IMG/VR virus record: IMGVR_UViG_2534681762_000014
Origin: a virus
Lineage: Duplodnaviria; Heunggongvirae; Uroviricota; Caudoviricetes
DNA: 35,657 nucleotides
Strand: one strand, 5' to 3'
The notes beneath the pieces are model-generated. The model searched no databases, was not told the origin of the DNA, and was given only the letters and a program-made list of their open reading frames with translations. The position numbers were made by a program, and so were the translations under genes. Position 1 is the first letter of the stretch. Each line of letters begins with the position of its first letter. Of the stretch, positions 3,510 through 35,657 are shown one piece after another.

Positions 3510-5778
3510 AGCCTCCGGGCGTTTTGTCCCTCCGTCAGCATTTGCCGCAGGCACCGGTAAGATGTTTACCGGTGCTTATGCATGGAACGCGCCACGCGAG
3601 GCCGTCGGGCGCGAAAGACCCCTTACACGTGATGAGATGCGTCAGGTGCAAGGTGTTTTATCCACGATTAACCGCCTGCCTTACTTTTTGCGCTCACTGT
3701 TTACTTCACGCTATGACTACATCCGGCGCAATAAAAGCCCGGTGCACGGGTTTTATTTCCTCACATCCACTTTTCAGCGTCGTTTATGGCCGCGCATTGA
3801 GCGTGTGAATCAGCGCCATGAAATGAACACCGACGCGTCGTTGCTGTTTCTGGCAGAGCGTGACCACTATGCGCGCCTGCCGGGAATGAATGACAAGGAG
3901 CTGAAAAAGTTTGCCGCCCGTATCTCATCGCAGCTTTTCATGATGTATGAGGAACTCAGCGATGCCTGGGTGGATGCGCATGGCGAAAAAGAATCACTGT
4001 TTACGGATGAGGCTCAGGCTCACCTGTATGGTCATGTTGCTGGCGCTGCACGAGCTTTCAATATTTCCCCTCTCTACTGGAAAAAATACCGTAAAGGACA
4101 GATGACCACGAGGCAGGCATATTCTGCCATTGCCCGTCTGTTTAACGATGAGTGGTGGACTCATCAGCTTAAAGGCCAGCGTATGCGCTGGCATGAAGCG
4201 TTACTGATAGCTGTCGGGGAGGTCAATAAAGACCGTTCTCCTTATGCCAGTAAACACGCCATTCGTGATGTGCGTGCGCGCCGCCAGGCAAATCTGGAAT
4301 TTCTTAAATCGTGTGACCTTGAAAACAGGGAAACCGGCGAGCGCATCGACCTTATCAGTAAGGTGATGGGCAGTATTTCTAATCCTGAAATTCGCCGGAT
4401 GGAGCTGATGAACACCATTGCCGGTATTGAGCGTTACGCCGCCGCAGAGGGTGATGTGGGGATGTTTATCACGCTGACCGCGCCGTCAAAGTATCACCCG
4501 ACACGTCAGGTAGGAAAAGGCGAAAGTAAAACCGTGCAGCTTAATCACGGCTGGAACGATGAGGCATTTAATCCAAAGGATGCGCAGCGTTATCTCTGCC
4601 GTATCTGGAGCCTGATGCGCACGGCATTCAAGGATAATGATTTACAGGTCTACGGTTTGCGTGTCGTCGAGCCACACCACGACGGAACGCCGCACTGGCA
4701 TATGATGCTTTTTTGTAATTCACGCCAGCGTAACCAGATTATCGAAATCATGCGTCGCTATGCGCTCAAAGAGGATGGCGACGAAAGAGGAGCCGCGCGA
4801 AACCGTTTTCAGGCAAAACACCTTAACCGGGGCGGTGCTGCGGGATATATCGCGAAATACATTTCAAAAAACATCGACGGCTATGCACTGGATGGTCAGC
4901 TCGATAACGACACCGGCAGGCCGCTGAAAGACACTGCAGCGGCTGTTACCGCATGGGCGTCAACGTGGCGCATCCCGCAATTTAAAACGGTTGGCCTGCC
5001 GACAATGGGGGCTTACCGTGAACTACGCAAATTGCCTCGTGGCGTCAGCATTGCTGATGAGTTTGACGAACGCGTCGAGGCTGCTCGCGCTGCCGCAGAC
5101 AGCGGTGATTTTGCGTTGTATATCAGCGCGCAGGGTGGGGCAAATGTCCCGCGCGATTGTCAGACTGTCAGGGTTGCCCGTAGCCCGTCGGATGACGTTA
5201 ACGAGTACGAGGAAGAAGTCGAGAGAGTGGTCGGCATTTACGCGCCGCATCTCGGCGCGCGTCATATTCATATCACCAGAACGACGGACTGGCGCATTGT
5301 TCCGAAAGTGCCGGTCGTTGAGCCTTTGACTTTAAAAAGCGGCATCGCCGCGCCTCGGAGTCCTGTCAATAACTGTGGAAAACTCACCGGTGGTGATACT
5401 TCGTTACCGGCTCCCACACCTTCTGAGCACGCCGCAGCAGTGCTTAATCTGGTTGATGACGGTGTTATCGAATGGAGTGACCCGGAGGTCGTGAGGGCGC
5501 TCAGAGGTGCATTAAAACACGGTCGGAGAACGCCAAGTCGTCAGCAAAGAAACGGAAGCCCGTTAAAACCGCATGAAATTGCACCATCGGCCAGAATGAC
5601 CCGGTCGGAAAGAATGCAAATTACCCGTATCCGCGTTGACCTTGCTCAGAAGGGTATCAGGCCGCAGCGATGGGAGCTTGAGGCGCTGGCGCGTGGCGCG
5701 ACCGTAAATTATAACGGGAAAAAATTCACGTATCCGGTCGCTGATGAGTGGCCGGGCTTTACTGGCAGTACCACATAG
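3499..5778 (+). CDS. A: Replication initiation endonuclease A (rolling-circle initiator), about 759 aa
   Basis: Long ORF with P2 gpA-like sequence; start taken at the ATG at 3499 (MAVKASGRF); conserved Tyr-containing region (GAAGYIAKYISK). Confidence 0.85.
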   Translation: MAVKASGRFVPPSAFAAGTGKMFTGAYAWNAPREAVGRERPLTRDEMRQVQGVLSTINRLPYFLRSLFTSRYDYIRRNKSPVHGFYFLTSTFQRRLWPRIERVNQRHEMNTDASLLFLAERDHYARLPGMNDKELKKFAARISSQLFMMYEELSDAWVDAHGEKESLFTDEAQAHLYGHVAGAARAFNISPLYWKKYRKGQMTTRQAYSAIARLFNDEWWTHQLKGQRMRWHEALLIAVGEVNKDRSPYASKHAIRDVRARRQANLEFLKSCDLENRETGERIDLISKVMGSISNPEIRRMELMNTIAGIERYAAAEGDVGMFITLTAPSKYHPTRQVGKGESKTVQLNHGWNDEAFNPKDAQRYLCRIWSLMRTAFKDNDLQVYGLRVVEPHHDGTPHWHMMLFCNSRQRNQIIEIMRRYALKEDGDERGAARNRFQAKHLNRGGAAGYIAKYISKNIDGYALDGQLDNDTGRPLKDTAAAVTAWASTWRIPQFKTVGLPTMGAYRELRKLPRGVSIADEFDERVEAARAAADSGDFALYISAQGGANVPRDCQTVRVARSPSDDVNEYEEEVERVVGIYAPHLGARHIHITRTTDWRIVPKVPVVEPLTLKSGIAAPRSPVNNCGKLTGGDTSLPAPTPSEHAAAVLNLVDDGVIEWSDPEVVRALRGALKHGRRTPSRQQRNGSPLKPHEIAPSARMTRSERMQITRIRVDLAQKGIRPQRWELEALARGATVNYNGKKFTYPVADEWPGFTGSTT

Positions 5779-6081
5779 CTGAATACTTTAATTGACGCTG
5801 AAACTATCAGAGGGGATGTGTTTGATTAAATAAACAATGTGTTGAGATCTACTTACTGGGTTGTTGATAAGAAAATTTAGCTCTTGGTCAGCAAGAGATT
5901 ATACTGATTGCGATTAGGCTAGGGATAACGTGGGCAATTTCTGTTGTTGGAAGCTGGGTTTTACGAGCGAAAAAAGTATGTGATTTGTGGTTTTGCCCTT
6001 ATAGTATGCGCAATTTAGGAGTGAAAACTATAACCATAAGCTTTAATTATTTCTACTTTTTAGGTATGTCCGGAGGCTCTC

Positions 6082-7077
6082 ATGACTACTAAGCCAATGA
6101 GTCGACTATATGAAAAAATCAGCAAGGCGGGGTTTAGCCGTTCATTTATACGCAAAGTCTTACCTTCATGGTGGGACGACAGCCTAGCTGATACACCTTC
6201 AGGTAAGCAGTACGCTAGCCTTCATTTGGCTCGTGTTTTTAGTTTGTCTCCAGAAAGTCTCAAGGATGGTTCTGAATCTGCGTCTTTCAACCTTGGTGGA
6301 AATCATCGCTTTAAACATCGTGTAAATCTTGGTGAGGAAGACCTGAATGTTGCTACTGCCGTTGCATATTCTGCGGCGAGGATTGTAGCAGAGAATTTCA
6401 GTATCCCGTTTAATCCAAACGCAGAACTTAATTGGCAGGCAGTGAGGGATAAACTGCTCAGCGATAAAAAGTGGGTGGATTTGGCTTCTCTGATTGGTTT
6501 TTGCCATTCGTTAGGCATTCCTGTTGTCTACATTAAGAACTTTCCAACGGGTGCGGCAAAAATGGCTGGCCTTGCATTAAGTGTATCTGGTAGGCCAGTA
6601 ATTGTTTTAACCCAAGCTAAAACCCATGGATTTATGCTATTTGATTTGGCTCATGAGCTTGGTCATATTGCACTAGGCCATCTCAATGATCTCAATGGGG
6701 GGGTCCATGTTGATCGCAAAATTGAAGCGCAGTCTACTAACAATCTTGAGGTGGCAGCTAACAAATATGCCTTTGGTTTGATTGGTGGAAAAGAGACTTT
6801 GAGAATAGCACCTACAAGGGGCTATCTCACAGGTGAAAAATTGGCTAGAGCTGCGCTAGTATATGGTACACAGCATTGCATAGAGCCAACTCATGTAGCT
6901 TTGAACTATGGTCACAATTTAGGGCACTGGGGAGTGGCTGTTAACGCTGTTAAAAGTATTTGCGTGGGACAACCGACAGACCAATCTTTAGCTAGGCAGC
7001 TCATGATGGATGCCATCGATCACGAAAATATTAATGACGACGACTTAGAACTTTTAACGACGCTATGTGGGGTTTAA
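6082..7077 (+). CDS. ImmA/IrrE-family zinc metallopeptidase-domain protein, 331 aa, hotspot cargo gene 1
   Basis: HExxH motif in the typical ImmA/IrrE context (FMLFDLAHELGHIALGH at about residues 185-200); good RBS (GGAGG) upstream; AT-rich relative to the phage backbone. Confidence 0.7.
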   Translation: MTTKPMSRLYEKISKAGFSRSFIRKVLPSWWDDSLADTPSGKQYASLHLARVFSLSPESLKDGSESASFNLGGNHRFKHRVNLGEEDLNVATAVAYSAARIVAENFSIPFNPNAELNWQAVRDKLLSDKKWVDLASLIGFCHSLGIPVVYIKNFPTGAAKMAGLALSVSGRPVIVLTQAKTHGFMLFDLAHELGHIALGHLNDLNGGVHVDRKIEAQSTNNLEVAANKYAFGLIGGKETLRIAPTRGYLTGEKLARAALVYGTQHCIEPTHVALNYGHNLGHWGVAVNAVKSICVGQPTDQSLARQLMMDAIDHENINDDDLELLTTLCGV

Positions 7078-7080
7078 GTA

Positions 7081-7603
7081 GTGATCGTTCTTTCAGACAA
7101 TGATGTCATTTTGAAACTAGCGCAGTGTAATTTACTCCGTTACCTTCCTGAGATTTTGGAAGAGGATCCGCGAGGCATCTATGTTAGTCCGACGGCTCGT
7201 TTTCAATTATTACCGCGCAATACTGATAAAGCCATTAAGAAGTGCGGTAGTGTGGCTATTTACGAAAATGTGGAAAGATTTCTAGGAAGTGTGCAAGTTA
7301 TTGATGAAATCAGAAACGATGATTTGCTGATTAAACTTGGTGAGATACCACACATAGATGTCGGCGAACAACAGCTTTTAGCTGCATGCGTTGAGCAACC
7401 AGGAGCTTTGTTCATGACAGGTGACCGTCGATGTTTGCAGGCTGTGATGGACAATCAGACTATTGTCGCTACGGTTCATGCGCGTCTAATTGACTCAGTA
7501 ATAACCTATGAGAGTGCTCTTTTGCTTTCTGTTCGCGTTTTAGGATTTGAGACTCTATATCAACAACTACAAACGAACCCGAATCCAGATGCAATGCTGA
7601 GGA
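7081..7603 (+). pseudogene. PIN-like putative nuclease, N-terminal fragment (residues 1-174); gene interrupted by IS10
   Basis: GTG start 3 bp after the peptidase stop; N-terminal MIVLSDNDVIL resembles the first PIN strand with its acidic residue; later TGD motif; the frame runs into IS10 at 7604. Confidence 0.55.
7595..7603. repeat. IS10 target-site duplication, left copy (TGCTGAGGA)
   Basis: Identical 9-mer directly flanks both IS10 ends; fits the IS10 GCTNAGC preference. Confidence 0.85.
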
Positions 7604-8932
7604 CTGATGAATCCCCTAATGATTTTTATCAAAATCATTAAGTTAAGGTAGATACACATCTTGTCATATGATCAAATGGTTTCGCCAAAAATCAATAATC
7701 AGACAACAAGATGTGCGAACTCGATATTTTACACGACTCTCTTTACCAATTCTGCCCCGAATTACACTTAAAACGACTCAACAGCTTAACGTTGGCTTGC
7801 CACGCATTACTTGACTGTAAAACTCTCACTCTTACCGAACTTGGCCGTAACCTGCCAACCAAAGCGAGAACAAAACATAACATCAAACGAATCGACCGAT
7901 TGTTAGGTAATCGTCACCTCCACAAAGAGCGACTCGCTGTATACCGTTGGCATGCTAGCTTTATCTGTTCGGGCAATACGATGCCCATTGTACTTGTTGA
8001 CTGGTCTGATATTCGTGAGCAAAAACGACTTATGGTATTGCGAGCTTCAGTCGCACTACACGGTCGTTCTGTTACTCTTTATGAGAAAGCGTTCCCGCTT
8101 TCAGAGCAATGTTCAAAGAAAGCTCATGACCAATTTCTAGCCGACCTTGCGAGCATTCTACCGAGTAACACCACACCGCTCATTGTCAGTGATGCTGGCT
8201 TTAAAGTGCCATGGTATAAATCCGTTGAGAAGCTGGGTTGGTACTGGTTAAGTCGAGTAAGAGGAAAAGTACAATATGCAGACCTAGGAGCGGAAAACTG
8301 GAAACCTATCAGCAACTTACATGATATGTCATCTAGTCACTCAAAGACTTTAGGCTATAAGAGGCTGACTAAAAGCAATCCAATCTCATGCCAAATTCTA
8401 TTGTATAAATCTCGCTCTAAAGGCCGAAAAAATCAGCGCTCGACACGGACTCATTGTCACCACCCGTCACCTAAAATCTACTCAGCGTCGGCAAAGGAGC
8501 CATGGGTTCTAGCAACTAACTTACCTGTTGAAATTCGAACACCCAAACAACTTGTTAATATCTATTCGAAGCGAATGCAGATTGAAGAAACCTTCCGAGA
8601 CTTGAAAAGTCCTGCCTACGGACTAGGCCTACGCCATAGCCGAACGAGCAGCTCAGAGCGTTTTGATATCATGCTGCTAATCGCCCTGATGCTTCAACTA
8701 ACATGTTGGCTTGCGGGCGTTCATGCTCAGAAACAAGGTTGGGACAAGCACTTCCAGGCTAACACAGTCAGAAATCGAAACGTACTCTCAACAGTTCGCT
8801 TAGGCATGGAAGTTTTGCGGCATTCTGGCTACACAATAACAAGGGAAGACTTACTCGTGGCTGCAACCCTACTAGCTCAAAATTTATTCACACATGGTTA
8901 CGCTTTGGGGAAATTATGAGGGGATCTCTCAG
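7604..8932 (+). mobile_element. IS10 (IS4 family), complete 1329-bp copy
   Basis: Outside end CTGATGAATCCCCTAATGATTTT at 7604 and inside end ...GGGGATCTCTCAG at 8932; length exactly 1329 bp; encodes the 402-aa IS10 transposase. Confidence 0.9.
7711..8919 (+). CDS. tnp: IS10 transposase, 402 aa
   Basis: Translation recognised as Tn10/IS10 transposase (MCELDILHDSLYQF...HGYALGKL). Confidence 0.9.
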   Translation: MCELDILHDSLYQFCPELHLKRLNSLTLACHALLDCKTLTLTELGRNLPTKARTKHNIKRIDRLLGNRHLHKERLAVYRWHASFICSGNTMPIVLVDWSDIREQKRLMVLRASVALHGRSVTLYEKAFPLSEQCSKKAHDQFLADLASILPSNTTPLIVSDAGFKVPWYKSVEKLGWYWLSRVRGKVQYADLGAENWKPISNLHDMSSSHSKTLGYKRLTKSNPISCQILLYKSRSKGRKNQRSTRTHCHHPSPKIYSASAKEPWVLATNLPVEIRTPKQLVNIYSKRMQIEETFRDLKSPAYGLGLRHSRTSSSERFDIMLLIALMLQLTCWLAGVHAQKQGWDKHFQANTVRNRNVLSTVRLGMEVLRHSGYTITREDLLVAATLLAQNLFTHGYALGKL

Positions 8933-8941
8933 TGCTGAGGA
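8933..8941. repeat. IS10 target-site duplication, right copy (TGCTGAGGA)
   Basis: Exact match to 7595-7603. Confidence 0.85.
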
Positions 8942-9060
8942 TGGCTATGCGTTCTCGCAGCTCAGAAGATGTTTGTGGCTGCTTCTTTTCTTATACGCGC
9001 CCTGTATACGATTATCTGGCCTTTAAACAACATTTACCGGATCGTGCTTGGTTGCTTTAA
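8942..9060 (+). pseudogene. PIN-like gene, displaced C-terminal fragment (38 codons plus stop)
   Basis: When one duplication copy and IS10 are removed, the 7081 frame continues open for 39 codons to TAA at 9058-9060. Confidence 0.5.
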
Positions 9061-9123: not shown

Positions 9124-9149
9124 AGCCCGTCAGTAATGGCGGGCTTTTT
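9124..9149 (+). terminator. Rho-independent terminator candidate downstream of the hotspot operon
   Basis: Stem AGCCCGTC/GGCGGGCT with 6-nt loop followed by TTTT. Confidence 0.45.
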
Positions 9150-9193: not shown

Positions 9194-9212
9194 GGCGAGG
9201 CGGGGAAAGCAC
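9194..9212. other. cos: cos site: P2-type 19-nt cohesive-end sequence GGCGAGGCGGGGAAAGCAC
   Basis: Matches the P2 cohesive end as I recall it; located between the hotspot and the portal gene as in P2. Confidence 0.6.
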
Positions 9213-9354
9213 TGCGCGCTGGCGGTGGTGCTGATTTTATTTTTTCAGCGTCTGAGCGCGTCGTGATGGCGTTTAGATTGTGCGTCGGGGCGTTGGTGTA
9301 TCTAAGGGGTGTTTTGTGCGGTGGTGAGCGTGTGAGGGCGTGATGACGGGATGT

Positions 9355-9376
9355 AAAAAAGCCGCCCGCAGGCGGC
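9355..9376 (-). terminator. Rho-independent terminator downstream of Q (minus strand)
   Basis: GC-rich hairpin GCCGCC-CGCA-GGCGGC preceded on the plus strand by A6 (U-run on minus), immediately after the Q stop. Confidence 0.6.
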
Positions 9377-9381
9377 GATGT

Positions 9382-9875
9382 TCAGTCGTTGTCAGTGTCC
9401 AGTGAGTAGTTTTTAAAGCGGATGACCTCCTGACCGAGCCAGCCGTTTATCTCTCGGATCCTGTCCTGTAACGGGATAAGCTCATTGCGGACAAAGACCT
9501 TTGCCACTTTCTCAATATCACCCAGCGACCCGACGTTCTCCGGCTTGCCGCCCATCAACTGAAAGGGGATGCGGTGTGCGTCCAGCAGGTCAGCGGCGCT
9601 GGCTTTTTTGATATTAAAAAAATCGTCCTTCGTTGCCACTTCACTGAGTGGGATAATTTTAATGCCGTCAGCTTTCCCCTGCGGGGCATAGAGAAACAGG
9701 TTTTTAAAGTTGTTGCGGCCTTTCGACTTCACCATGTTTTCGCGAAGCATTTCGATATCGTTGCGATCCTGCACGGCATCGGTGACGTACATGATATATC
9801 CGGCATGTGCGCCATTTTCGTAATACTTGCGGCGGAACAGCGTGGCCGACTCATTCAGCCAGGCAGAGTTAAGGG
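9382..9875 (-). pseudogene. Q: Portal protein Q, C-terminal fragment (gene split by IS66-family insertion)
   Basis: Translation continues the portal sequence (...NSAWLNESATLFRRKYY...) from the fragment at 12575-13123; the apparent Met at 9886-9888 lies inside the IS. Confidence 0.8.
9868..9875. repeat. IS66-family target-site duplication, left copy (GTTAAGGG)
   Basis: Same 8-mer at 12575-12582, flanking the element. Confidence 0.75.
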
Positions 9876-9928
9876 GTAACCGGCTCATTTAAACCGTCTG
9901 GTCTGTTTCCTCCGGCTCTACAAAAATA

Positions 9929-10606
9929 ATGTCCATCATTTTTAATGGACACTATCGTATGAAACACCGGACCTGGATCACTGAAGCTTTACGTCTTCAC
10001 TTTGAAGAACATTTACCCCGGGTTGTGGCCGGGCGTCGCCTGGGTGTACCAAAATCAACAGTTTGTAGTATGTTCGTGCGCTTTCGGAGAGCTGGCCTTT
10101 CGTGGCCTTTGCCCGCAGGCATGTCGGAGCAGGAACTTGATGCCTGCCTTTACGGACAATTTTCCACGGTACCAGTCGTACGTCCTGAAAGCACCGTTAT
10201 ATCCGAAGCCCCCGTGGTAAAAAAACGTCCCCGGCGGCCCAACTTCCCTTATGAGTTTAAAATCGCCTTAGTGGAGCAGTCACTGCAGCCCGGAGCCTGT
10301 GTGGCGCAGATCGCCCGGGAAAACGGAATCAACGATAACCTGCTCTTCAACTGGCGCCATCAATACCGGAAAGGTGGCCTGCTGCCTTCCGGAAAAAATA
10401 TGCCGGCACTGCTTCCCGTGACGTTAACGCCGGAGCCGGATAATAAAATCCCGGCCCCCGCACAGGAACCAGAGCAGATAAATACACCGTCCGACAGTCT
10501 GTGTTGTGAGCTGGTTCTGCCGGCCGGAACTCTCAGGCTTAAAGGTAAACTGACGCCGGCGTTATTACAGACACTTATCCGCGAAATAAAAGGGAGCAGC
10601 CACTGA
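9929..10606 (+). CDS. tnpA: IS66-family accessory protein TnpA (orf1), with an N-terminal HTH-like extension
   Basis: Contains the IS66 orf1 signature (PNFPYEFKIALVEQSLQPGACVAQIARENGINDNLLFNWR); true start may be the downstream Met at 9959. Confidence 0.7.
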   Translation: MSIIFNGHYRMKHRTWITEALRLHFEEHLPRVVAGRRLGVPKSTVCSMFVRFRRAGLSWPLPAGMSEQELDACLYGQFSTVPVVRPESTVISEAPVVKKRPRRPNFPYEFKIALVEQSLQPGACVAQIARENGINDNLLFNWRHQYRKGGLLPSGKNMPALLPVTLTPEPDNKIPAPAQEPEQINTPSDSLCCELVLPAGTLRLKGKLTPALLQTLIREIKGSSH

Positions 10607-10953
10607 TGATATCTCTCCCTGCAGGTTCGCGTATCTGGCTGGTTGCAGGTATCACCGATATGCGAAATGGCTTTAACGGCCTGGCATCAAAAGTTCAGAA
10701 CGTCCTGAAGGATGACCCGTTCTCCGGACACCTGTTCATCTTCCGCGGACGCCGGGGTGACCAGATAAAAGTGTTGTGGGCTGACAGTGACGGACTGTGC
10801 CTCTTCACCAAACGCCTGGAGCGGGGCCGCTTCGTCTGGCCAGTCACCCGTGACGGCAAGGTGCACCTTACTCCGGCTCAGTTATCCATGCTTCTTGAAG
10901 GTATCAACTGGAAGCACCCGAAACGAACGGAACGCGCTGGAATCCGCATATAA
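10606..10953 (+). CDS. tnpB: IS66-family TnpB (orf2), 115 aa
   Basis: Characteristic size and sequence; overlapping stop/start with orf1. Confidence 0.8.
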   Translation: MISLPAGSRIWLVAGITDMRNGFNGLASKVQNVLKDDPFSGHLFIFRGRRGDQIKVLWADSDGLCLFTKRLERGRFVWPVTRDGKVHLTPAQLSMLLEGINWKHPKRTERAGIRI

Positions 10954-10972
10954 CCCGTTGTAAAGTGAGGAT

Positions 10973-12544
10973 ATGGACACCTCACTTGCTCATGAGAACG
11001 CCCGCCTGCGGGCACTGTTGCAGACGCAACAGGACACCATACGCCAGATGGCTGAATACAACCGCCTGCTCTCACAGCGGGTGGCGGCTTATGCTTCCGA
11101 AATCAACCGGCTGAAGGCGCTGGTTGCGAAACTGCAACGTATGCAGTTCGGTAAAAGCTCAGAAAAACTTCGTGCAAAAACCGAACGGCAGATACAGGAA
11201 GCACAGGAGCGAATCAGCGCACTTCAGGAAGAAATGGCGGAAACGCTGGGTGAGCAATATGACCCGGTACTGCCATCCGCCCTGCGCCAGTCTTCAGCCC
11301 GTAAACCGTTACCGGCCTCACTTCCCCGTGAAACCCGGGTTATCCGGCCGGAAGAGGAATGCTGTCCTGCCTGTGGTGGTGAACTCAGTTCTCTGGGATG
11401 TGATGTGTCAGAGCAACTGGAGCTTATCAGCAGCGCCTTTAAGGTTATCGAAACACAACGTCCGAAACTGGCCTGTTGTCGGTGCGACCATATCGTGCAG
11501 GCACCAGTACCTTCAAAACCCATTGCACGCAGTTATGCCGGAGCGGGGCTCCTGGCCCATGTCGTCACCGGAAAATATGCAGACCATCTGCCGTTATACC
11601 GCCAGTCAGAGATATACCGCCGTCAGGGTGTGGAGCTGAGCCGTGCCACACTGGGGCGCTGGACAGGTGCCGTTGCTGAACTACTGGAGCCGCTGTATGA
11701 CGTCCTGCGCCAGTATGTGCTGATGCCCGGTAAAGTCCATGCTGATGATATCCCCGTCCCGGTCCAGGAGCCGGGCAGCGGTAAAACCCGGACAGCCCGG
11801 CTGTGGGTCTACGTCCGTGATGACCGTAACGCCGGTTCACAGATGCCCCCGGCGGTCTGGTTCGCGTACAGTCCGGACCGGAAAGGTATCCATCCACAAA
11901 ATCACCTGGCCGGTTACAGCGGTGTGCTTCAGGCCGATGCTTACGGTGGTTACCGGGCGTTATACGAATCCGGCAGAATAACGGAAGCCGCGTGTATGGC
12001 TCATGCCCGGAGAAAAATCCACGATGTGCATGCAAGAGCGCCCACCTACATCACCACGGAAGCCCTGCAGCGTATCGGTGAACTGTATGCCATCGAGGCA
12101 GAGGTCCGGTGCTGTTCAGCAGAACAGCGTCTGGCGGCAAGAAAAGCCAGAGCCGCGCCACTGATGCAGTCACTGTATGACTGGATACAGCAACAGATGA
12201 AAACACTGTCGCGTCACTCAGATACGGCAAAAGCGTTCGCATACCTGCTGAAACAGTGGGATGCACTGAACGTGTACTGCAGTAATGGCTGGGTGGAAAT
12301 CGACAACAACATCGCAGAGAACGCCTTACGGGGAGTGGCCGTAGGCCGGAAAAACTGGATGTTCGCGGGTTCCGACAGCGGTGGTGAACATGCGGCGGTG
12401 TTGTACTCGCTGATCGGCACATGCCGTCTGAACAATGTGGAGCCAGAAAAGTGGCTGCGTTACGTCATTGAACATATCCAGGACTGGCCGGCAAACCGGG
12501 TACGCGATCTGTTGCCCTGGAAAGTTGATCTGAGCTCTCAGTAA
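10973..12544 (+). CDS. tnpC: IS66-family transposase TnpC, 523 aa
   Basis: Characteristic size; N-terminal coiled coil, CxxC-type zinc-finger region, DDE core. Confidence 0.85.
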
Positions 12545-12574
12545 ATATCAATACGGTTCTGACGAGTCGCTTAC

Positions 12575-12582
12575 GTTAAGGG
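12575..12582. repeat. IS66-family target-site duplication, right copy (GTTAAGGG)
   Basis: Exact match to 9868-9875. Confidence 0.75.
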
Positions 12583-13123
12583 CGCTGAGATATTCCGGCA
12601 GGCCGTACAGCTCCTGATTAATATCCGGCTCCAGCAGGTGAAACACGGAGCCGGGTGCGAAGGCTGTCGGCTCGTTGAAGGACGGCACCCACCAGTAAAC
12701 ATCCTCCTCCACACCACGGCGGGTATATTTTGCCGGTGAGGTTTCCAGTCTGATGACCTTACCGGTGGTGCTGTAACGCTTTTCCAGAAACGCATTACCG
12801 AACACCAGAAAATCCAGCACAAAGCGGCTGAAATCCTGCTGGGAAAGCCACGGGTGCGGAATAAACGTTGAAGCCAGAATATTACGTTTGACGTAAATCG
12901 GTGAGCTGTGATGCACGGCAGCACGCAGGCTTTTTGCCAGACCGGTAAAGCTGACCGGTGGCTCATACCATCTGCCGTTACTGATGCACTCGACGTAATC
13001 CAGAATGTCACGGCGGTCGAGTACCGGCACCGGCTCACCAAAGGTGAATGCCTCCATTTTTGGGGCACTGGCAGTCATTTTTTTTGCCGCAGGTTGCGGT
13101 GTTTTCCCTTTTTTCTTGCTCAT
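12575..13123 (-). pseudogene. Q: Portal protein Q, N-terminal fragment
   Basis: Starts MSKKKGKTPQPAAKKMTA...; the last 9 codons of the listed ORF (to 12548) are IS-derived. Confidence 0.8.
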
Positions 13124-25036: not shown

Positions 25037-25468
25037 ATGAGCTATGTATACAGCGCTAAAAAAAACGCTTTCTATCCCGTCGAGTTGCAGGACAACTATG
25101 AGGCATCAGGAACGTGGCCTGCCGATGGGATAGAAGTTGGAGTGGATGTATTTAATATTTTTTCTCAGCTACCACCAGAAGGTAAACAGAGAATTCCTGA
25201 TAGCAATGGAATGCCTGCCTGGGGCGATATTCCGCCGCCCACTCATGATGAATTAGTTGCTGCGGCAACTGCCGAGAAACAGCATCGCATTGATGCTGCG
25301 AATGCATTCATGAGCAGCAGGCAATGGCCGGGAAAGGCCGCGATGGGGCGTCTGAGCGCTGCGGACAAAGTTCAGTATAATTTATGGCTGGATTATCTTG
25401 ATGCGCTGGAGGCAGTGGATACTGCCATCGCGCCGGATATCAACTGGCCTGCTCGCCCGGCTGAGTAG
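25037..25468 (+). CDS. G: Tail fibre assembly chaperone (gpG/Tfa), expressed orientation
   Basis: 143 aa; conserved C-terminal block (SSRQWPGKAA...QYNLWLDYLDALE) shared with the inverted copy at 26402-26830. Confidence 0.8.
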   Translation: MSYVYSAKKNAFYPVELQDNYEASGTWPADGIEVGVDVFNIFSQLPPEGKQRIPDSNGMPAWGDIPPPTHDELVAAATAEKQHRIDAANAFMSSRQWPGKAAMGRLSAADKVQYNLWLDYLDALEAVDTAIAPDINWPARPAE

Positions 25469-25544
25469 GTCACTCGATATCGGGGCTATAGAGATATCAA
25501 TCGCCTCCATTGCAGGCGTTACCAGATTTTAGCCAAATAAATAT

Positions 25545-25568
25545 CCTCCGGCATAGCCGGAGGTTTTT
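25545..25568 (+). terminator. Rho-independent terminator after tfa
   Basis: 8-bp stem CCTCCGGC/GCCGGAGG, 3-nt loop, followed by TTTTT. Confidence 0.6.
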
Positions 25569-25574
25569 CAAATG

Positions 25575-26282
25575 CGCCTATAAGGCTCTCTTACCAGCCG
25601 CGCCCTAACAGGCGCACACGATCTGACATTTGCATCCAACTTCGTTACTTACGGCCCGTAAACGGGCTGCCCGGATAGGGAATCGATAACTGCTCTCCCA
25701 TTTTATCCTCTTCAAGCTGGTGCTTTATGTAATCCTGTATCTTCGCCGTGTTCTTACCCACCGTATCGACGTAATACCCTCTGCACCAGAACTCCCTGTT
25801 CCTGTATTTGAATTTCAAATCACCAAACTGCTCGTAAAGCATCAGACTGCTTTTCCCTTTCAGATATCCCATAAAGCCGGGTACGCTCATTTTGGGCGGG
25901 ATCTCCACAAGCATATGGATATGATCTGCACAGCATTCAGCTTCCAGAATCCGTACACTTTTCCACTCACACAGCTTTCTCAAAATACAGCCTATTGCTC
26001 TACGCTTCTCTCTGTAGAACACCTGTCTTCGGTATTTTGGCGCAAATACTATGTGATATTTACAGTTCCATCGGGTGTGCGCTAAGCTCTTTTCGTTCCC
26101 CATTGGGACCCCCTTTTGATTTCTTGTTTGACACTTGCAGTTGCCAGACCGCAAGGTGTTTTAACAAATCAAAAGGGGTTTTAATAACTGGCTCAAAGCT
26201 GAAAGCTTTCCGGAACCCCCAGCCTAGCTGGGGGTTTTCTGTGCACAAAAAAGCCCCTGCATTTCTGCAGGGGCCTGATATC
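25575..26282 (-). mobile_element. IS200 (IS200/IS605 family), about 0.7 kb; boundaries approximate within some tens of bp
   Basis: Encodes IS200 TnpA; left-end region has two strong hairpins (26216-26234 and 26253-26274), the outer one preceded by A6 on the plus strand (a terminator on the tnpA strand), as described for IS200; no terminal inverted repeats expected. Confidence 0.75.
25645..26106 (-). CDS. tnpA: IS200 transposase TnpA (Y1 HUH type), about 153 aa
   Basis: Translation recognised as IS200 TnpA (MGNEKSLAHTRWNCKYHIVFAPKYRR...HIHMLVEIP...), with HUH motif HIH. Confidence 0.85.
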   Translation of the reverse strand, partial: PMGNEKSLAHTRWNCKYHIVFAPKYRRQVFYREKRRAIGCILRKLCEWKSVRILEAECCADHIHMLVEIPPKMSVPGFMGYLKGKSSLMLYEQFGDLKFKYRNREFWCRGYYVDTVGKNTAKIQDYIKHQLEEDKMGEQLSIPYPGSPFTGRK

Positions 26283-26358
26283 TGGTGCTGGCTGAATGGA
26301 ATCGAACCATCGTCTTTCCGCGTACAATGCGAAAGCTCTACCACTGAGCTAAACCAGC
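26283..26358 (-). tRNA. tRNA-like sequence, possible tRNA-Thr (anticodon UGU) variant or pseudogene, with encoded CCA
   Basis: Reverse complement reads GCTGGTT-TA-GCTCAGTGGTAGAGC-T-TTCGC-ATTGTAC-GCGGA-AAGAC-GATGG-TTCGATT-CCATT-C-AGCCAGC-A-CCA: canonical D-arm and T-loop, 7-bp acceptor stem, anticodon loop centred on TGT, but one extra nucleotide between the T-stem and acceptor stem. Confidence 0.45.
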
Positions 26359-26401
26359 AATGGTGCAGAATAATACCCGGATTCTGATAAAATGCAATAG
26401 C

Positions 26402-26830
26402 TTATTGTGGCTGAACAGGCCATTCGATATCAGGTGCAGTTGAAATGCCGAGAGCTTCCAGCGCATCGAGATAATCCAGCCACAGGTTATACTGCGCCAG
26501 CTCATCCCCCTTCAGTCTGCCAATAGCCGCTTTGCCCGGCCACTGCCTGCTGCTCATGTAATCGTTGGCCTGGCTAATCAACGCCTGTTTTTTAACGTCA
26601 GCTGCTGCAATGAGTTCTTTGCGTGTAGGTGGGGGCATATCCACCCATACTGGCATTCCATCGTCTGCTCCCAGAGCTTTTCCAGGTGGTGGTGACCCTG
26701 TAAATGTACTGACTATATCATCGCTGATATCAATCATATCAGACATGTCCCATCCCGCCGATTCATAAGACGACAGCCAGGATTTCGGGAAAAAGTTCAC
26801 AGTCGTTGCAGACCATTTATATCCGTTCAT
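26402..26830 (-). CDS. Alternative tail fibre assembly chaperone (Tfa'), inverted orientation
   Basis: 142 aa; same conserved C-terminal block as the tfa at 25037-25468, divergent N-terminus; convergent with it. Confidence 0.75.
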   Translation of the reverse strand: MNGYKWSATTVNFFPKSWLSSYESAGWDMSDMIDISDDIVSTFTGSPPPGKALGADDGMPVWVDMPPPTRKELIAAADVKKQALISQANDYMSSRQWPGKAAIGRLKGDELAQYNLWLDYLDALEALGISTAPDIEWPVQPQ

Positions 26831-26834
26831 TTAT

Positions 26835-27195
26835 TTAGCTCCCGAACGCCAGCCAGAATATTGTCATTGTACTGGCTGTATTCGTTGTGTATATGCTGAA
26901 TCGCGACGTGCTATCTACATTGACGTTGAAACTGACAGGTCCGGTTCCATAGAGGCCGGGGTTAACCAGAGCAGGAATCACACAGGAGCAACGGTTAGGA
27001 AACGGAACAGGAAAAAACACAGCGTTACCTGATGAACCACCGGTGATGTTTGGTGCATTTCCCCCATCAATACCATGCCATTTGGAAACCGGTAATAAAA
27101 TGCCATGGTTGTCGAACCGCCCGTAAAACTGCTCATATCCGGTATCTGATTCGCACCAGTACCCACGTCTCGTTGCGCGGCCGATTTCAATTGAA
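26835..27195 (-). pseudogene. Alternative tail-fibre variable tip (Hv'), frameshifted
   Basis: Minus strand encodes LKSAAQRDVGTGANQIPDMSSF..., homologous to the H tip, then changes frame (two ORFs, 26978-27235 and 26835-27020); segment length is out of phase with the H frame. Confidence 0.6.
27133..27195. repeat. Right inverted repeat of the invertible tail-fibre segment
   Basis: Reverse complement matches 24661-24723; the TTCAATTGAA palindrome is at 27186-27195. Confidence 0.65.
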
Positions 27196-27262
27196 CGTTT
27201 AAGAAAATGCAGAGATAACGGCTAACTGGCATCATCTCCGGTTTTTATTCAGGGGATCCATC

Positions 27263-27856
27263 ATGCTTATTGGCTATGTCCGCGTATCAACAAATGACCA
27301 GAATACGGAATTGCAGCGTAACGCGCTGGAGTGTGCAGGATGTGAGCTGATTTTTGAGGACAAAATCAGCGGCACGAAGTCCGACTGGCCGGGACTGAAA
27401 AAACTGCTCAGGACATTATCGGAGGGGGATACACTGGTAGTCTGGAAGCTGGACCGGCTGGGGCGTAGTATGCGGCATCTGGTCATTCTGGTTGAGGAGC
27501 TGCGCGAACGCGGCATTAATTTTCGCAGCCTGACGGATGCCATTGATACCAGCACGCCAATGGGGCGTTTTTTCTTTCATGTGATGGGTGCCCTGGCTGA
27601 AATGGAACGAGAACTCATTGTCGAGCGGACTCGCACCGGACTGGAAGCGGCCAGAGCTAAAGGTCGTATTGGTGGCAGACGTCCGAAGCTCACCGCGAGT
27701 GAGTGGGAACAGGCAGGACGGTTGCTGGCTGCGGGTGAATCACGTCAACGCGTGGTGCTGATTTTTGATATTGGCCTGTCCACGCTCTATAAAAAATTCC
27801 CCTCATCAGCGGCAAAGAATAAATTGTGTCATCCCTTAGCCAACCGGGACAAATAG
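27263..27856 (+). CDS. Serine recombinase, Din-family DNA invertase (Pin/Gin/Cin/Hin-like), 197 aa
   Basis: N-terminal catalytic domain with the active-site Ser in MLIGYVRVSTNDQ, the SMRHL and GRFFFHVMGALAEMERE blocks, and a C-terminal HTH; sits immediately outside the right inverted repeat. Confidence 0.9.
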   Translation: MLIGYVRVSTNDQNTELQRNALECAGCELIFEDKISGTKSDWPGLKKLLRTLSEGDTLVVWKLDRLGRSMRHLVILVEELRERGINFRSLTDAIDTSTPMGRFFFHVMGALAEMERELIVERTRTGLEAARAKGRIGGRRPKLTASEWEQAGRLLAAGESRQRVVLIFDIGLSTLYKKFPSSAAKNKLCHPLANRDK

Positions 27857-34673: not shown

Positions 34674-34754
34674 ATCCTCAATTTGCCTGCTGCTTAATGC
34701 ATTGCAGATGATTTGCTTCCGTTATACTAGCGTCAGTTGATAGCGGGAGTATTT

Positions 34755-35657
34755 ATGAATCAATCTTATGGACGGCTGGTCAGTCGGGCGGCGATTGCTG
34801 CGACGGCGATGGCTTCGCTGCTATTGCTGATTAAAATTTTTGCATGGTGGTATACCGGGTCGGTGAGTATTCTCGCCGCGCTGGTGGATTCGCTGGTGGA
34901 TATCGGCGCGTCGTTGACGAATTTACTGGTGGTGCGATATTCCCTGCAACCTGCCGACGATAATCACTCGTTTGGTCACGGTAAAGCTGAGTCCCTCGCG
35001 GCGCTGGCGCAAAGTATGTTTATCTCCGGTTCGGCACTATTCCTGTTTTTGACGGGTATTCAACATCTGGTATCTCCAACACCGATGACAGATCCAGGCG
35101 TCGGGGTTATCGTGACAATTGTGGCGCTAATTTGTACGATTATCCTTGTCTCGTTTCAGCGTTGGGTGGTGCGCCGGACGCAAAGCCAGGCGGTGAGGGC
35201 TGATATGCTACATTACCAGTCTGATGTTATGATGAACGGCGCAATTCTGCTGGCGCTGGGGTTGTCCTGGTACGGCTGGCATCGCGCCGATGCTCTGTTT
35301 GCATTGGGAATCGGCATCTATATTTTATATAGCGCGTTACGCATGGGATATGAGGCGGTACAGTCATTACTGGATCGCGCATTGCCTGATGAGGAACGGC
35401 AAGAAATTATTGATATCGTGACTTCCTGGCCGGGTGTTAGCGGCGCTCACGATCTTCGCACGCGGCAGTCAGGGCCGACCCGCTTTATTCAGATTCATTT
35501 GGAAATGGAAGACTCTCTGCCTTTGGTTCAGGCACATATGGTGGCGGATCAGGTAGAGCAGGCTATTTTACGGCGTTTTCCGGGATCGGATGTGATTATC
35601 CATCAGGACCCCTGTTCCGTCGTACCCAGGGAGGGTAAACGGTCTATGCTTTCATAA
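34755..35657 (+). CDS. fieF: Cation-diffusion-facilitator family Fe/Zn efflux transporter FieF (YiiP), 300 aa, host gene
   Basis: Translation recognised as E. coli FieF/YiiP ([38 protein letters not shown]...); complete, ends at the window edge. Confidence 0.9.

Follow-up and report, generated by a model that had tools for sequence, protein, structure and literature searches.

The window analysed here is a 35,657-nucleotide stretch of DNA (IMG/VR virus record IMGVR_UViG_2534681762_000014), taken at its full length, and holds an entire P2-like prophage that runs from the integrase (1-1011) through C, Cox, B, A and the late genes to D and ogr, with a fieF flank. Between replication gene A and the cos site lies a two-gene module (5779-9060) that encodes an ImmA/IrrE-type zinc protease followed by a predicted PIN-like protein, the second gene being interrupted by the insertion sequence (IS) IS10. 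We lean, with slightly more confidence than doubt, towards reading this pair as a self-contained, RosmerTA-like toxin-antitoxin (TA) or abortive-infection module, carried as accessory cargo of the gpA-cos hotspot of P2-like prophages. A protease-controlled system of this general kind was the original prediction for the locus, made from the sequence alone, and it is now supported by the architecture of the pair, the co-divergence of its two proteins, its hotspot position and the precedent of RosmerTA. The module type is uncharacterised, yet it has been catalogued (Rousset, 2022) and was anticipated bioinformatically (Matelska, 2017; Ernits, 2023).

Gene 1 (6082-7077, plus strand, with the TAA stop at 7075-7077) encodes a 331-amino-acid protein in which conservation and structural modelling together show a putative XRE-like N-terminal domain, a catalytically intact M78 zinc protease of the ImmA/IrrE/CapP type and a helical C-terminus. 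The coordinates and the HExxH motif in ImmA/IrrE context that had been proposed for it, the latter within LFDLAHELGHIALGH, were both borne out: the Pfam model Peptidase_M78 (PF06114) matches residues 143-241 at 31.5 bits against a cutoff of 22, the domain as a whole spanning approximately residues 85-240, and the identical protein in RefSeq (WP_000208725.1) is named ImmA/IrrE family metallo-endopeptidase. The catalytic zinc site (6652-6750, plus strand) comprises H191-E192-x-x-H195 (6652-6666), H200 and E223 (6748-6750). None of these five residues varies among 63 full-length homologues, the most distant at about 38% identity, which argues that the protease chemistry is under selection. The AlphaFold2 (AF2) model (predicted local distance difference test score, pLDDT, 88.5) has five short N-terminal helices at residues 5-60, within the predicted XRE-like domain (residues 1-60, nucleotides 6082-6261), then a linker, the protease domain and a predicted all-helical C-terminal domain (residues 251-329). 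Taken in isolation, the N- and C-terminal domains have no Pfam match. The best structural match of gene 1 is CapP; a far weaker similarity to ArdC is generic to the zinc-protease fold. Matches to PADLOC models are partial, weak and confined to the protease core, and include capP (66 of 242 profile positions), RmrA (E=2e-6 to 0.05, over some 50-90 residues of the M78 core in profiles 357-400 long) and PD-Lambda-2_B (E=1.2e-5). In NCBIfam the spr1629 repressor/antitoxin family was hit far below threshold. At full length, gene 1 matches a PHROGs family of unknown function and has homologues in 482 clusters.

The linker carries a motif, (R/K)(F/Y)K(H/R/Q)R, at residues 76-80 (6307-6321, plus strand), in which K78 is conserved to 100%, R80 to 92% and F77 to 84%, and which falls within the lowest-confidence segment of the model (pLDDT below 50). 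CapP cleaves its helix-turn-helix (HTH) substrate CapH between F82 and R83, and the R/K-F-K-H-R motif of gene 1, placed between the HTH-like and protease domains, resembles that F-R cleavage site. By analogy, a self-cleavage site at a distance from the HTH-like domain similar to that in CapH is an attractive possibility for this motif.

Gene 2 begins with a GTG codon at 7081, 3 bp past the gene 1 TAA as had been reported, and this spacing is close enough to be compatible with translational coupling. In the window the gene consists of a 5' part (7081-7603, codons 1-174 plus one nucleotide, beginning MIVLSDNDVILK) and a 3' part (8942-9060, residues 175-213 plus the stop codon, identical to the intact gene of Escherichia coli NC22), both on the plus strand. 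Removal of IS10 and one copy of its target duplication yields a single open reading frame (ORF) of 213 amino acids ending at 9060, the length that had been estimated. Its product is taken, from conservation and modelling, to be PIN-like, to have the conserved acidic active site in full and to carry a conserved C-terminal extension. Structure prediction, run on a homologue 99% identical (2 substitutions) to the IS-free gene 2, gave a PIN alpha/beta/alpha fold. In 49 relatives of 23-49% identity, invariance is confined to D6 (7096-7098), D8, E96 (7366-7368), G114 and D115 (7423-7425) of a T113-G114-D115 motif, and E144 (7510-7512), all encoded on the plus strand. In the predicted structure the invariant acidic residues are placed directly behind strand 1, within a helix, directly behind the strand that T113-G114 closes and directly behind the strand that follows, which in this model is the classic PIN arrangement. 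The C-terminal extension (residues 156-213) is strongly conserved as well, with S191, L200, K203 and L206 invariant in a strongly conserved C-terminal helix; the extension alone has no Pfam match.

Detection of a PIN domain by sequence was negative. Gene 2 matched no model of Pfam, NCBIfam or PADLOC even at E<=10; among its 49 relatives, one gave a weak match to the Pfam PIN model PF01850 (E=0.0013) and none matched DUF4411 (PF14367); and an hhalign comparison with a VapC sequence was likewise negative. A profile search of Protein Data Bank sequences returned Cas12a as its sole match (E=0.18), which we rejected as spurious. The PIN assignment therefore rests on the predicted fold and the conserved acidic residues, and gene 2 would represent a PIN-like family outside the coverage of current sequence libraries. 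Of the earlier proposals for the two proteins, the PIN-like N-terminus with its TGD motif (residues 113-115) and the PIN fold of gene 2 have held up. Profile searches agreed with expectation for gene 1, whose M78 match is above the curated threshold, but not for gene 2, and the suggestion of DUF4411 is rejected. Gene 2 does match a full-length PHROGs family of unknown function, has homologues in 58 clusters from Enterobacterales at 42-99% identity, and as a family profile retrieves 1215 representative clusters at E<=0.001, mostly of 200-220 amino acids. With such large families of full-length homologues, both proteins are far beyond what chance would produce.

The two genes are inherited together. 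At 46 loci, retrieved via gene 1, via gene 2 or via distant relatives of gene 2, a gene 1 homologue is followed directly, and in the same orientation, by a gene 2 homologue in every case (46/46), and the genes are separated by a few bases or overlap, including in pairs at 28-34% identity. Measured against the window pair, the two proteins lose identity in parallel, starting at 100% and reaching about 29%. Over 28 distinct pairs this co-divergence gives r=0.98, a value that shared ancestry inflates but that does show the two being inherited together, with no exchange of partners. Approximately 35 of the loci belong to P2/186-like prophages, from E. coli, Klebsiella, Citrobacter and their relatives, and there fill the gpA-portal slot; at several P2-like loci the pair is the sole cargo. 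Elsewhere it stands beside an integrase in both a Methylococcus integrative element and a Herbaspirillum filamentous prophage, and it occurs on one uncharacterised viral contig. The pair moves as a unit between unrelated mobile elements, and its family is present in Gamma- and Betaproteobacteria as well as on metagenome contigs. On the latter, its neighbours include the DISARM helicase DrmD (E=0) and a TmtA-like protein. Distant pairs, at about 30% identity, are found directly beside a divergently transcribed gene for a DISARM-type DrmD SNF2 helicase (contig L044, 1-4627) or beside a TmtA-like protein and an SNF2 helicase (contig L043, 2989-8663). This neighbourhood may reflect co-location in defence islands, or could be a hint of regulation of adjacent systems by the pair.

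In P2 the gpA-portal slot is well established as a site of defence cargo, being a hotspot in which tin, old and many validated systems are found. In the window the module lies between the end of gene A at 5778 and cos, and its GC content (42.4%, versus 53.6% for the prophage backbone) agrees with the AT-rich two-gene module originally described there. The right edge of the hotspot is marked by a P2-type cohesive-end sequence, GGCGAGGCGGGGAAAGCAC, at 9194-9212 (plus strand), an exact match (about 0.01 expected by chance) to the P2 cos sequence. Of 5426 complete E. coli genomes, 12 carry module DNA 99.6-100% identical to positions 5779-7603, all with gene 2 uninterrupted. E. coli NC22 is 100% identical over this interval and encodes an intact 213-amino-acid gene 2; its pair, annotated as WP_000208725.1 and the hypothetical protein WP_000636521.1 (NZ_CP109953.1, about 3392453-3394396), is flanked by the genes for the P2 replication endonuclease and the portal protein. 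No match to the module, as DNA or protein, was found in 50,697 deposited phage genomes, and it has been seen solely in prophages and metagenomic viral contigs. The supplement of a survey of P2 hotspot contents (Rousset, 2022) lists the pair as 'Peptidase_M78 + hypothetical' (WP_000208725 + WP_000636521), sometimes accompanied by the same ParA-like third gene as in NC22, and gives both versions of the hotspot; the main text neither discusses nor tests it. In the otherwise near-identical NC22 prophage, this extra 1.4-kb ParA-family (AAA_31/CbiA) gene sits between cos and the portal gene (NC22 locus 11104-12482), and it is absent from the window, where the corresponding stretch is 9220-9429.

The window copy of gene 2 is interrupted at codon 175 by a complete IS10 of 1329 bp with the known terminal sequences (7604-8932, plus strand), which encodes a 402-amino-acid transposase (7711-8919, plus strand) and is flanked by a 9-bp target-site duplication, TGCTGAGGA, at 7595-7603 and in perfect copy at 8933-8941. 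The insertion takes off residues 175-213, the conserved last 39, and leaves the catalytic core in place; the disrupted gene reads into IS10 and would end at 7641 as a 186-amino-acid product. The junction occurs in none of the 5426 E. coli genomes. The window copy has probably lost its activity, and not long ago, since everything else in it is identical to intact copies. That IS10 lies in gene 2, with gene 1 identical to intact copies, is a mild argument for gene 2 being the harmful member of the pair.

Upstream of gene 1 is an AT-rich leader (5779-6081, plus strand, 37% GC). Cross-locus conservation points to a candidate -10 element, TATAGT (6000-6005, plus strand), which is overlapped by a perfect 7-bp inverted repeat (TTATAGT at 5999-6005 and ACTATAA at 6027-6033, with an N21 spacer), a candidate operator. 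A strict sigma-70 scan upstream of gene 1 found no plus-strand promoter. The upstream block and the repeat are kept in several diverged P2-type loci, although not in all: Citrobacter-type loci, with proteins at only about 64% identity, keep the repeat at an unchanged distance from the start codon, and Klebsiella-type loci lack it. A repeat so placed fits, weakly, with autoregulation. The start of gene 1 is supported by the Shine-Dalgarno sequence GGAGG (6072-6076, plus strand), because the start context GGAGGCTCTyATG recurs in most divergent homologous loci. At the other end, a hairpin followed by a T run, resembling an intrinsic terminator (9124-9145, plus strand), lies 64 nt past the gene 2 stop and is likely the end of the operon.

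In the mechanism that we favour, the PIN-like protein would be an RNase-type toxin, and the gene 1 protein would counteract this toxin, or use its own N-terminal domain and the inverted repeat to repress the operon, or do both. Phage infection would activate the M78 protease, which would then cut a regulatory segment, most plausibly gene 1's own F-K-H-R linker, where the HTH-like domain meets the protease domain, on the model of CapP, which cuts CapH between F82 and R83. Cleavage would release or induce the nuclease, and infection would be aborted as in RosmerTA-type systems. Several points weigh against this account. We infer toxicity, neutralisation, protease activity, nuclease substrate and phage phenotype of the pair from sequence, models and analogy; no PIN sequence model matches gene 2, and the Foldseek E-values for its PIN fold are weak; the inverted repeat is conserved in some lineages only; and in PD-lambda-2 it is the HTH-peptidase protein that is toxic, not its partner, so that the polarity could be reversed. 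The truncated nuclease of the window also retains its whole catalytic core, so inactivation by IS10 does not follow of necessity, and the insertion is a single event at a target resembling the preferred site of the element, so it may reflect target preference rather than selection.

More boldly, the pair could found a distinct, un-named abortive-infection family, in which a fused 'CapH-CapP-like' sensor cuts itself at the F-K-H-R linker and thereby licenses a co-evolving PIN-like RNase. We advance this tentatively and regard it as doubtful. If true, sensor, switch and antitoxin would be combined in a single polypeptide, a mechanism unlike that of the partner-swapping RosmerTA.

The pair might instead be an addiction module only, a TA pair that stabilises the prophage or mobile element by post-segregational killing and has no anti-phage role. 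Its TA-like architecture is equally expected under that explanation, it does stand beside integrases in the integrative element and the filamentous prophage, and peptidase-type prophage TA modules can render host proteases essential with no known defence role. We nevertheless judge the explanation unlikely: plasmid-style addiction is of little benefit to a chromosomally integrated prophage, the P2 gpA-portal slot is strongly enriched in defence cargo, DISARM DrmD and TmtA-like genes are among the neighbours of the pair, and related peptidase-antitoxin systems defend.

Reversed polarity, with the HTH-M78 protein as toxic effector and the PIN-like protein as its neutraliser or sensor, has its model in PD-lambda-2B, which is toxic alone and rescued by its partner (Vassallo, 2022) and whose profile gene 1 partially matches, as noted above. 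The state of the window argues otherwise, since gene 2 is disrupted and gene 1 is intact and identical to copies that look functional; were gene 1 dependent on gene 2, this state should kill, unless the truncated product still functions. The invariant nuclease-type active site of gene 2 is typical of effectors, and the peptidase protein is the antitoxin in RosmerTA; we consider reversal improbable.

It is more improbable still that the pair is a regulatory module, in which gene 1 is an ImmA/CapP-like anti-repressor of prophage induction or of a neighbouring immune operon and gene 2 an accessory. CapP is the best structural match of gene 1, ImmA/ImmR and CapP/CapH are transcriptional switches, and in one contig the pair lies divergent from a DISARM drmD gene. 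Against this, no separate HTH substrate gene accompanies the pair, gene 1 lacks the GAF domain of CapP/IrrE, and the P2 immunity genes (C/Cox) are located elsewhere in the window, away from the module. Often the pair is the only cargo of the hotspot, leaving nothing else to regulate, and presence in 12 of 5426 E. coli genomes does not suggest a core prophage function. Least probable of all is counter-defence, in which an ArdC-like metalloprotease degrades an immune protein of the host or of a rival element with help from the nuclease: the ArdC similarity is fold-generic and much below the CapP match, and strict pairing with a PIN-like partner and chromosomal defence-gene neighbourhoods fit defence or TA better.

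The RosmerTA-like reading would bear on how the M78 protease 'antitoxins' of RosmerTA-like defences sense phage and control their toxins. The pair would offer a compact and rigid version of such a system, in which a predicted nuclease effector could easily be assayed, catalytic residues could be mutated and a candidate motif for self-cleavage is at hand. Among Enterobacterales it is frequent cargo of the P2 hotspot, and PADLOC v2, Pfam and NCBIfam are blind to gene 2, so its loci are missed in defence censuses. The window copy itself is of smaller practical weight, being broken by IS10 in a prophage that is also IS-hit in its portal gene and tail-fibre region.

The prophage is integrated in the cpxP-fieF region: a cation-efflux (FieF-like) gene closes the window (34737-35657), and cpxP adjoins the same integrase in NC22. 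Its portal gene Q is split into fragments 9382-9888 and 12548-13123 by an IS66-family element of 2699 bp (9876-12574; ORFs 9929-10606, 10606-10953 and 10973-12544) with an 8-bp duplication, GTTAAGGG, at 9868-9875 and 12575-12582, so that the prophage very likely can no longer produce particles. The tail-fibre region (25037-27856) contains two opposed tail-fibre-assembly genes (25037-25468, plus strand; 26402-26830, minus strand) and a serine recombinase/invertase gene (27263-27856), which together suggest an invertible host-range segment. An IS200-like Y1 transposase gene (25645-26154, minus strand) is inserted in this region and represents the third IS of the prophage.

Among characterised systems the closest is RosmerTA, a validated anti-phage system composed of a zinc-peptidase antitoxin and a toxin whose function is unknown (Millman, 2022), in which deletion of rmrA is not tolerated. 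Both are prophage-borne and consist of two genes, an ImmA/IrrE-type zinc-peptidase protein, often with a small N-terminal HTH, and a toxin, toxicity being presumed for gene 2. They differ in that gene 1 has no full-length match to RmrA and gene 2 none to RmrT or any other PADLOC model at E<=10. The characterised RmrT toxin depolarises membranes (Ernits, 2023), whereas gene 2 is a predicted PIN-like nuclease, and the partners of RosmerTA swap promiscuously while gene 1 and gene 2 form a rigid, co-diverging pair. One study assigned the ImmA protease the role of a hub among antitoxin domains and noted that it associates with PIN-like domains, those pairs being untested (Ernits, 2023). Literature searches for experiments on an ImmA and PIN (defence) pair found none, and a 2026 preprint on P2/P4 hotspots makes no mention of the terms for such a pair.

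Three-component systems of HTH, DUF955 (M78) protease and PIN-like nuclease (DUF4411, COG2405, PIN_14/20/26) have been predicted, with a proposed mechanism in which the protease cuts the HTH part and so releases expression of the nuclease (Matelska, 2017); this class is a prediction that has never been tested. The module resembles it in that a fused HTH/M78 gene retaining HExxH is followed by a gene for a PIN-like nuclease, and departs from it in that neither gene 2 nor its 49 relatives match DUF4411. With VapBC it shares the predicted VapC PIN fold of the gene 2 core, with a D-E-D-E/D acidic set, and an upstream gene 3 bp away. That upstream partner, however, is a 331-amino-acid metalloprotease protein instead of a small ribbon-helix-helix, AbrB or Phd antitoxin, and gene 2 is about 80 amino acids longer than VapC, with its conserved C-terminal extension and no similarity at the sequence level. 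PD-lambda-2 likewise carries an Xre-HTH-M78 peptidase protein and is prophage-type defence cargo of E. coli, but has three genes, including HigB-like and P4-antitoxin-like proteins, and a toxic peptidase protein, and its model is matched here in part only.

CapP/CapH, IrrE(PprI)/DdrO and ImmA/ImmR differ from the module too. CapP and IrrE have an M78 domain, a central HTH and a C-terminal GAF domain, whereas in gene 1 the HTH-like domain is fused N-terminally and the C-terminus is all-helical, without GAF. A separate HTH repressor ORF is found neither between gpA and cos nor in related loci, unlike in CapP/CapH, and the partner of gene 1 is a PIN-like protein, not the immune operon of CapP. 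As originally judged, the pair could not be assigned to a named and validated system, because the profile tests for RmrA, RmrT, CapP, DUF4411 and Pfam PIN fail and neither GAF nor CapH is present. We conclude that, on present sequence comparisons, it should be placed outside the RmrA/RmrT, CapP and DUF4411 families, as a further, rigidly paired member of the M78-protease-controlled TA-like defence modules.

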